From positions 1 through 64,000 of the forward strand of contig JAHPZE010000026.1 of the NCBI GenBank assembly GCA_019058365.1: a DNA stretch of 64,000 bases, read 5' to 3'. Below, piece after piece: positions 45,173 to 46,130 of this stretch; position 1 is the first letter of the stretch, and every line of letters begins with the position of its first letter. The stretch is from Promethearchaeota archaeon. GTDB lineage: Archaea; Asgardarchaeota; Lokiarchaeia; Sigyniarchaeales; SOKP01. A program made the translations under genes and the position numbers. Below the pieces are notes generated by a model that was not told the origin of the DNA, ran no database searches, and was given only the letters and a program-made list of their open reading frames with translations.

Positions 45173-45544
45173 TTATTTCTTTATTTGCTCTAAATTTTTA
45201 ATTATATCATTCAATACGCTATCATTTCCTGTGCCAGCATTTTCAACAGCAATAGCACTTGAAGATATATTGATTCGCACTGTGGTTCCTAGTTCTTTTT
45301 TAGTTGATAGATATCCATATGGAATACCTTTTTCTTCACATAACAAGGGGATGTGGAAGAGAATCTCTGGAGGACTTACATCTTCTGCCATAATAACTAA
45401 TTTGGCTTGAACCCTTTCTATACTTTTAGTTACTTCATTCATTCCTTTTCTAATCTTAGAATCTCGGGTTTCTGCAATAGTACCTAAACCATTCTTAATT
45501 TGAGTTTTAAGTTTATCAGGAATATTAAATTTTATATAAGAAAT
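45173..45544 (-). CDS. rpl7ae: 50S ribosomal protein L7Ae (probable ATT start at 45544)
   Basis: Frame continues upstream of ATG 45442 as ISYIKFNIPDKL...KIRKGMNEVTKSIER; AEDVSPPEI..H.P.LCEEK; in-frame TGA two codons above ATT. Confidence 0.92.
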   Translation of the reverse strand: MSYIKFNIPDKLKTQIKNGLGTIAETRDSKIRKGMNEVTKSIERVQAKLVIMAEDVSPPEILFHIPLLCEEKGIPYGYLSTKKELGTTVRINISSSAIAVENAGTGNDSVLNDIIKNLEQIKK

Positions 45545-45697
45545 TTTTCATCACACTCATTCAAATATATTTAATTTTAGATATATTTTCATAAATCATC
45601 GATATAGTATGAGAATCAAAGTCAAGGATAACAAATAAAATTTTTTATTTAGGTAAAAAACCTAAAAATTTTTTTATAATGCTTCTTTTAAAAAGTT

Positions 45698-45898
45698 ATG
45701 ATTATACCTATTCGTTGTTTTTCATGTGGCAAACTTATCGCTCATGTATATAAGCCGTATTTAGAGCTCATAGAAAAAGGGGAACCTTCTGAAAAAGCTT
45801 TTAAAGAGTTAGGAATAGAACGTTTCTGCTGTAAAAGAATGATAGTTTCGCACGTTGACTTGATAGATGAATTACTTAAATTTCCACGCTTACAATAA
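45698..45898 (+). CDS. rpoN: RNA polymerase subunit N (Rpo10)
   Basis: MIIPIRCFSCGK, LGIERFCCKRM..SHVDLID. Confidence 0.97.
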   Translation: MIIPIRCFSCGKLIAHVYKPYLELIEKGEPSEKAFKELGIERFCCKRMIVSHVDLIDELLKFPRLQ

Positions 45899-45947
45899 TT
45901 AAGCTATTTTTTTAAATCTTATAAATAATAAATTTTTATAAATCTAA

Positions 45948-46130
45948 TTATTGTTTCCCATAATGGGCTGTCCATCTTGTTTTTCTCGCTTTTTTTCCAT
46001 AAATGTTCATGGCTTTTCTGCATTTATTAGTGCAAAAGTTCAAAACTGTGCCATCTCTTTTTACGAACATAATTCCTCTTCCAATAGCAATATCATACCC
46101 ACAAAATGAGCATTTTTTGACTTTAACTAT
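45948..46130 (-). CDS. rpl24e: 50S ribosomal protein L24e (absent from ORF track; probable ATA start)
   Basis: Manual translation IVKVKKCSFCGYDIAIGRGIMFVKRDGTVLNFCTNKCRKAMNIYGKKARKTRWTAHYGKQ*. Confidence 0.93.
   Translation of the reverse strand: MVKVKKCSFCGYDIAIGRGIMFVKRDGTVLNFCTNKCRKAMNIYGKKARKTRWTAHYGKQ

Follow-up and report, generated by a model that had tools for sequence, protein, structure and literature searches.

Where does translation begin in a gene that has no usable ATG, GTG or TTG? The question is raised by two ribosomal protein genes, those for L7Ae (eL8) and L24e (eL24), in a 64,000-nucleotide stretch of DNA from a Promethearchaeota archaeon (hereafter the window; contig C51 of a 4.74-Mb genome, 29.5% GC). 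An earlier, sequence-only reading held that these two genes, together with an alkyltransferase-like (ATL) gene and a cupin gene, start at ATT or ATA codons placed behind a Shine-Dalgarno (SD) motif, and that such initiation is systematic in the lineage. We conclude that a few percent of genes, in this genome and in its relatives, very probably start at ATT, ATA or ATC (together ATH) just behind the ribosome-binding site. The explanation we favor, to which we assign a probability of about 0.9, is that the genes are intact, that the SD would seat the ATT or ATA codon in the P site, and that Met-tRNAi would be accepted there despite the mismatch. Five alternatives, weighed below, share the small remainder.

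Table 1. Features of the window discussed in the text, with positions counted along the window
Feature	Position	Strand	Remarks
L7Ae (eL8) gene	45173..45544	(-)	123 codons, start ATT 45544; Pfam PF01248
SD motif of L7Ae	45551..45558	(-)	complementary to 16S 3´ end; ATT 6 nt downstream
Double K-turn-like hairpin, L7Ae leader	45556..45601	(-)	3´ end overlaps SD
L24e (eL24) gene	45948..46130	(-)	60 codons, start ATA 46130; Pfam PF01246 from residue 3
SD motif of L24e	46135..46144	(-)	6-nt spacer to ATA
ATL (alkyltransferase-like) gene	48903..49229	(+)	108 codons, start ATT 48903; Pfam PF01035, residues 4-85
SD core GGTGA of ATL gene	48892..48896	(+)	6-nt spacer
Cupin gene	36603..36974	(+)	123 codons, start most likely ATT 36603; Pfam PF07883
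Strong SD motif of cupin	36589..36597	(+)	SD score 20; spacer 5 to ATT 36603
RpoN (Rpo10) gene	45698..45898	(+)	ATG start without SD here; internal control
S28e gene	44909..45154	(-)	starts with ATG here; start column variable among relatives

The proposed layouts of L7Ae, L24e and the ATL gene are present as described (Table 1). In none of the four genes does an ATG, GTG or TTG occur after the upstream stop and before the conserved N-terminus, and the first such codon in frame is codon 35 in L7Ae, 21 in L24e, 40 in the ATL gene and 19 in the cupin gene. For L24e this codon falls after the CxxC zinc motif, and the Pfam matches of both L24e and ATL (whose residue 4 corresponds to profile position 1) begin before the first canonical codons. 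The 3´ end of the 16S rRNA (contig C35) bears the usual anti-SD, and the SD motifs are complementary to it at the spacing of ATG starts, which is 5-7 nt with a peak at 6. The in-frame stop just above the start, which had been counted as part of the layout, is indeed there, but it is not separate evidence. Where it lies two codons upstream of the start, it is simply the TGA belonging to the SD core, which a 6-nt spacer brings into frame; in the cupin gene the stop sits farther upstream. This in-frame TGA closes the frame to any upstream start. The cupin gene most likely also has a non-canonical SD-led start, but not at the ATA first proposed (36600), which lies one codon upstream of the better candidate. 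The homologous start column is at 36603, where 16 orthologues have ATC (9), ATT (4), ATA (1), ATG (1) or TTG (1), and for this reason we prefer ATT 36603. Since several of these relatives carry an in-frame ATG or TTG within the SD, the cupin gene is the least clean of the four cases. Two more candidates for SD-led ATH starts are present in the window, an ATC at 9081-9332 (+) and an ATA at 17059-16553 (-), both with 7-nt spacers.

The ATH codons are homologous to canonical starts in relatives and, at three of the four genes, are themselves conserved. The L7Ae start is ATT in 22 and ATA in 2 of the 24 genus genomes with the gene, counts that are not independent given that the genomes are related, and it is ATG in six outgroup loci; the 6-nt spacer is unchanged in all 24 genomes while its letters differ. 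In 80 further Promethearchaeota loci the column holds ATG (49), ATT (26) or ATA (5) and no other codon. On the L7Ae tree the ATH starts form one clade of 32 loci with a single origin, within which ATT and ATA switch and there is no return to ATG. Among L24e orthologues, ATG (30) is joined by ATA (4) and ATC (2), which have three origins on the tree, with ATA limited to the source species and its sister plus two further small clades. The ATL start is ATC in 8, ATT in 7, ATG in 1 and GTT in 1 of 17 orthologues, and GGTG is kept with the ATH and GTT starts and absent in the one orthologue with ATG. Thus, ATG at all four sites in relatives, the outcome that would have counted against these starts, was not seen: ATH is kept at L7Ae, ATL and the cupin, and only L24e is mostly ATG.

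A genome-wide excess of ATH starts, which the sequence-only reading had predicted, was found. Starting from 3898 ORFs that do not overlap and are at least 100 codons long, we selected those in which an SD scoring at least 13 lies no farther downstream than the first canonical codon. A canonical start lies at SD distance in 315 of these SD-led ORFs (ATG 241, TTG 58, GTG 16). Among the remaining 166, ATT (36), ATA (35) or ATC (6) is found 5-7 nt behind the SD, so that ATH accounts for 77 of 166 codons at SD distance versus 86 of 664 in the four codons that follow (p = 2e-19). Enrichment at this distance is confined, among all codons, to ATT, ATA and CTG. Behind SDs, ATT and ATA each occur about as often as TTG and more often than GTG. 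Decoy SD motifs gave far weaker signals (p = 0.02-0.5), and the ATT signal is weak in SD-anchored counts from which canonical starts are not removed.

ATG still dominates, and ATH starts are a minority, with an excess of 56-85 genes depending on the threshold, or 12-15% of SD-led genes (scores 11-13). An orthologue-based screen indicates that about 16 of 458 genes (3.5%) need ATH. Both estimates are lower bounds, and the share of all genes is at least 2-3.5%. The genes that need it include those for seven ribosomal proteins (L7Ae, eL24, eL21, uL15, uL16, uS10 and uS14), for aIF1 and for Rpp14; the uL16 start is ATC, and most genes of the S10-spc cluster have canonical starts. In 420-kb samples from two genus members ATH makes up 9-15%, versus 6-10% in one outgroup genome (G032; p about 0.02, few cases) and 0-1%, with no excess, in 820 kb of a second (G038, whose aIF1 gene opens with TTG), these two genomes being the whole basis of the outgroup rates. 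The trait is therefore strong in this Lokiarchaeia family and uneven outside it. As far as DNA sequence can establish it, the SD-led ATH start is confirmed as real, conserved and genome-wide, and the proposal that this lineage starts SD-led genes at AUU and AUA appears sound for that minority of genes.

The orthologue sets of RpoN and L24e tie these starts to the SD, given that every non-canonical start in both sets is accompanied by a strong one. RpoN orthologues start with ATG (38), ATT (4), ATA (3), GTT (3), ACG (2), ATC (1) or TTG (1), and an SD score of at least 11 is found at 13 of 13 non-canonical starts versus 2 of 39 ATG starts; all seven non-canonical L24e starts likewise score at least 11. 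The start state of RpoN changed 11 times on the tree, and non-canonical starts, GTT and ACG among them, arose repeatedly. A spacing of exactly 6 nt is commoner for ATH (49/77) than for ATG (63/166; p = 3e-4). The start column of S28e is also variable, with TTG in 41, TTA in 10, ATG in 9, GTG in 7, ATA in 2 and CTG in 2 relatives. The TTA of ten related genomes lies 6 nt behind GGTGA, with an alternative ATC one codon upstream in eight of them. Separately, a small GTPase-like gene (contig C52, ORF C52_81) keeps an SD followed after 6 nt by GTT in three genomes, a candidate GUU start with two mismatches from AUG.

Direct observation covers the arrangement of the DNA and its conservation, the excess of ATH across the genome, the dependence on the SD and the coding selection upstream of the first ATG (see below). 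To account for these findings, we suggest that pairing of the SD with the 16S 3´ end would bring the codon lying 5-7 nt (mostly 6) farther on into the P site, that Met-tRNAi on aIF2 would be accepted there despite a third-position mismatch, and that the proteins would begin with Met. Such starts may be found on SD-led genes because SD anchoring would stand in for the missing codon-anticodon energy. Mutation of a start to ATH (ATC included), and also to CTG, ACG or GTT, would then have been tolerated repeatedly in this Lokiarchaeia family. We infer initiation at the ATH codons, an N-terminal Met and an output below that from ATG.

Of the alternatives, the one that survives best, although we consider it quite improbable, accepts ATH initiation as real and attributes it to another tRNA or to a wobble-modified initiator, as in animal mitochondria, rather than to tolerance of a mismatch. 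The frequencies of ATT and ATA relative to TTG and GTG behind SDs are indeed more than a leak would suggest. However, the initiator tRNA gene is canonical in four genus members (A1-U72, three G-C pairs, CAT), a statement about the gene, in whose DNA modifications are invisible, and wobble modification leaves the first-position variants (CTG, GTT, TTG) and ACG unexplained. In the source genome itself, neither ARAGORN, which reported 11 tRNAs, nor a pattern search located an initiator tRNA gene. In three genus members the initiator tRNA gene stops short, either past the anticodon arm or within the T arm, which would fit introns at non-canonical positions.

Mismatch tolerance, our preferred explanation, does not appear to come from visible damage to the initiation machinery. 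Relaxed start-codon selection by aIF1 and aIF2, as had been proposed, is a conceivable cause, but aIF1 is intact and the initiator tRNA canonical. The aIF1 gene is present in 23 of 25 genus genomes with its usual motifs, the anti-SD likewise looks normal, and the 16S motifs in the 790, 1338-1339, 1400 and 1492 regions match the usual patterns. We saw no loss or damage, such as would point to a Sui-minus-type relaxation, in aIF1, in the identity elements of tRNAi or in the P-site 16S motifs checked, and this lack of a visible defect speaks against efficient use of AUU. In vitro, 30S complexes of S. solfataricus bound an AUU mRNA without aIF1 and rejected it with aIF1 (PMC4705826). The binding counts in favor of our explanation, whereas the rejection argues against efficient use of AUU unless aIF1 is scarce or altered.

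The two aIF2 subunits show changes specific to the genus. In aIF2beta (contig C35:108800-109135), four genus members have K, T or S in place of the conserved Glu of ELGT, versus E in two outgroups, and Met at the position that our count equates with yeast S202, versus Ala in these outgroups. The equivalent of K214 is kept, and the Ala outgroups are already without Ser at the S202 place; in yeast, S202A/K214A raises UUG initiation (PMC4534855). Changes at the equivalents of yeast E189 and Q193 were considered as an explanation and rejected, as basic residues are found there in outgroups too. The aIF2gamma gene (contig C37:4550-7804) encodes an N-terminal HHH_5 domain in 15 of 15 readable genus loci and in 0 of 13 outgroup loci, which have Lys-rich low-complexity extensions in its place. 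Because one clade amounts to one observation, neither the aIF2beta nor the aIF2gamma changes are evidence of cause. In two genomes (G001 and G003) the aIF2gamma gene appears to be interrupted near its 5´ part, given that the frame is just 400 codons long and the first GTPase motif is missing. This genome also has two aIF1A paralogues (C39:290132 and C34:200899), both started by ATG.

Initiation at an out-of-frame NTG within the SD, 10 nt upstream, followed by a +1 shift in the A-rich spacer would give the same proteins a canonical start, and an NTG is found at -10 in every L7Ae locus with ATH. This genome additionally has a run of five A residues in the L7Ae spacer and an ATG 7 nt upstream of the ATT. 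We regard this route as very unlikely nonetheless. The NTG belongs to the SD core, and a 6-nt spacer necessarily puts it there; the sequence of the spacer varies freely with no conserved slippery site, and spacers of 5 and 7 nt correspond to other frames. Moreover, RpoN orthologues with ATT, ATC, ACG or GTT have SDs without such an NTG, and the outgroup ATG falls exactly on the ATH column.

It is equally hard to credit that the proteins are N-terminally short, made from the first downstream ATG, GTG or TTG, or that the genes are decaying, even though databases annotate the short forms. Short forms would cost L24e its CxxC motif, aIF1 86 of its 105 residues and eL21 52 residues, and each of these genes is found once in the genome. 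The skipped segments, between the ATH codon and the first canonical codon, are also under coding selection, with 208 synonymous and 139 non-synonymous differences in L7Ae, 71 and 18 in L24e, 156 and 115 in ATL, and 491 and 134 in aIF1; the N-terminal segment of the cupin is without a synonymous excess (49 and 88). Codon use in ATH-led segments across the genome (0.16 bits) is the same as in ATG-led N-termini (0.19 bits; p = 0.65) and unlike that of non-coding sequence (-0.19 bits; p = 1e-21). This selection speaks against decay of the genes.

The short database forms reflect the gene-caller errors that had been anticipated, and standard gene finders cut ATH-led proteins short. In the protein collection, L7Ae is present as an 89-aa fragment from an internal ATG, as are 10 of the 15 cluster members listed, and the cupin has 105 aa there; no entry of this collection gives L7Ae at its full 123 aa with Ile as first residue. 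Members of the L7Ae cluster with 125 aa are most likely from genomes in which a TTG lies two codons before the ATH codon, directly against the SD, as it does in 4 of the 24 genus loci. That TTG, like the ATG within the SD of several cupin orthologues, counts against the ATH reading.

A further possibility is that the mRNA is altered before translation, either by editing of AUA or AUU to AUG or by excision of a tRNA-type intron so that an AUG from farther upstream is joined to the gene. Splicing of mRNA is conceivable here given an apparent tRNA-type intron in the rpoA1 gene of this genome, but the gap between the SD and the codon is just 6 variable nt with no bulge-helix-bulge, different edits would be required for ATT, ATA, ATC, ACG, GTT and CTG, and the ATG upstream in the leader has no conserved frame. 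We therefore give this route very little weight. The rpoA1 insert itself, which is outside the window (contig C52:2085-2114), is 30 nt long, contains a stop, interrupts GHFGH|IELARP and folds like a bulge-helix-bulge intron; its removal restores the frame. One other genome (G017) carries a diverged insert at this site, and two more (G003 and G024) are without it.

Sequencing or assembly error, which could have produced ATT at L7Ae by lengthening of the A-run (its shortening would yield an in-frame ATG), is a negligible possibility, as all 24 genus genomes keep ATT or ATA there with differing spacer letters and independent contigs agree with the window. DNA of the window was found in sediment and salt-marsh metagenomes, and the comparison was made on re-assembled contigs. 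Those of the probable source run (about 86x) show 0 differences and 0 gaps at all four sites, a contig from another study (44863-45900) spans the L7Ae A-run without a gap, and the L24e start is identical in a second sample.

Given that the ATH codons are most probably true starts, the start of aIF1 itself takes on a particular meaning. The 21 genus loci that could be read all have ATT there, whereas none of the internal Ile columns is invariant; the SD is more distant, at 9 nt, and the first canonical codon is number 87 of 105. Outgroups start aIF1 with TTG (4), ATG (2), GTG (1), GTG or ATA (1) and ATA (1), and so the invariant ATT is not universal in the order. The gene for a start-codon fidelity factor thus carries a conserved weak start of its own. 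According to the account in PMC4705826, E. coli infC, encoding IF3, starts at AUU and is under translational autocontrol (Butler et al., 1987). The two cases share an SD-led AUU start on a fidelity factor, here invariant across the genus. They differ in that aIF1 is not homologous to IF3 and in that dozens to over a hundred genes use ATH here, core ribosomal proteins included. As cited in PMC6237735 and PMC4534855, eIF1/SUI1 is autoregulated through a poor AUG context (Ivanov, 2010). This protein belongs to the same family (PF01253) and also has a weak start of its own; in contrast, the weakness of aIF1 would come from a non-AUG codon and an SD at 9 nt rather than from a Kozak context, and there is no scanning. 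By analogy, and in view of the in vitro rejection of AUU by S. solfataricus aIF1, aIF1 may limit its own synthesis as IF3 does and so set the tolerance of ATH starts, an idea to which we give slightly less than even weight. More doubtful is a broader start-codon regulon, in which the AUU of aIF1 would lead to low stringency, SD-anchored ribosomes could use nearly every NUN codon or near-cognate (ATT, ATA, ATC, CTG, ACG, GTT and perhaps TTA), several ribosomal proteins would be co-controlled by the level of aIF1, and the changes in aIF2beta and the HhH-bearing aIF2gamma may underlie the effect.

Eukaryotes have the most stringent initiation, and Asgard archaea are their close relatives. A large Asgard clade that relies on AUU and AUA for seven ribosomal proteins would go beyond the picture given in reviews, in which archaeal start codons are AUG, GUG and UUG (PMC7531240) and SD sequences are rare in Lokiarchaea (PMC7531240, PMC12993045). 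The invariant AUU of aIF1 would offer a direct test in archaea of the type of fidelity-factor feedback known for IF3 and eIF1. In these genomes at least 2-3.5% of proteins risk being annotated too short, which affects marker-gene alignments, structure prediction and expression constructs. Our literature search, which had most subscription journals outside its scope, turned up a single ATT start inferred for an Asgard gene and no report that covers a whole lineage. That start, in AtubA of the Kariarchaeaceae (PMC13394414), is likewise an ATT at a plausible distance behind a ribosome-binding site in an Asgard gene whose database protein is too short; unlike the present case, it concerns a single tubulin gene of Heimdallarchaeia, was inferred from structure and came with no lineage-wide claim. 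In ribosome profiling of Haloferax volcanii, about 30% of 160 alternative sites were near-cognate (PMC7261190). This likewise indicates that archaeal ribosomes may use such codons, but the alternative sites were set aside as possible false positives and are not the sole starts of essential genes.

The L7Ae leader has a second feature that touches the SD, a double K-turn-like hairpin (Table 1). The motif is found in 72 of 76 L7Ae leaders read and is conserved across the order. It has the 3-nt bulge, tandem G-A pairs and flanking helices of a K-turn, with the SD adjacent, and a K-loop reading of the SD alone was dropped in favor of this longer structure. Autoregulation through a K-turn in the L7Ae leader is known in archaea (PMC5539422, PMC6298567), and the hairpin, a candidate autoregulatory site, fits this precedent in that a K-turn-type motif overlaps the SD of l7ae. 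A Lokiarchaeal leader is not mentioned in the main text of either paper, and the present arrangement differs in having two K-turns in tandem and in being independent of the start codon. The latter follows from its presence in ATG-starting relatives too, the hairpin accompanying ATG and ATH starts alike. Among 30 distinct forms the outer -1 pair is C-G in all 30 and the 4b-4n pair is A-T in 27 and G-C in 3, and A-T/G-C exchange is seen at stem pairs in the outgroups.
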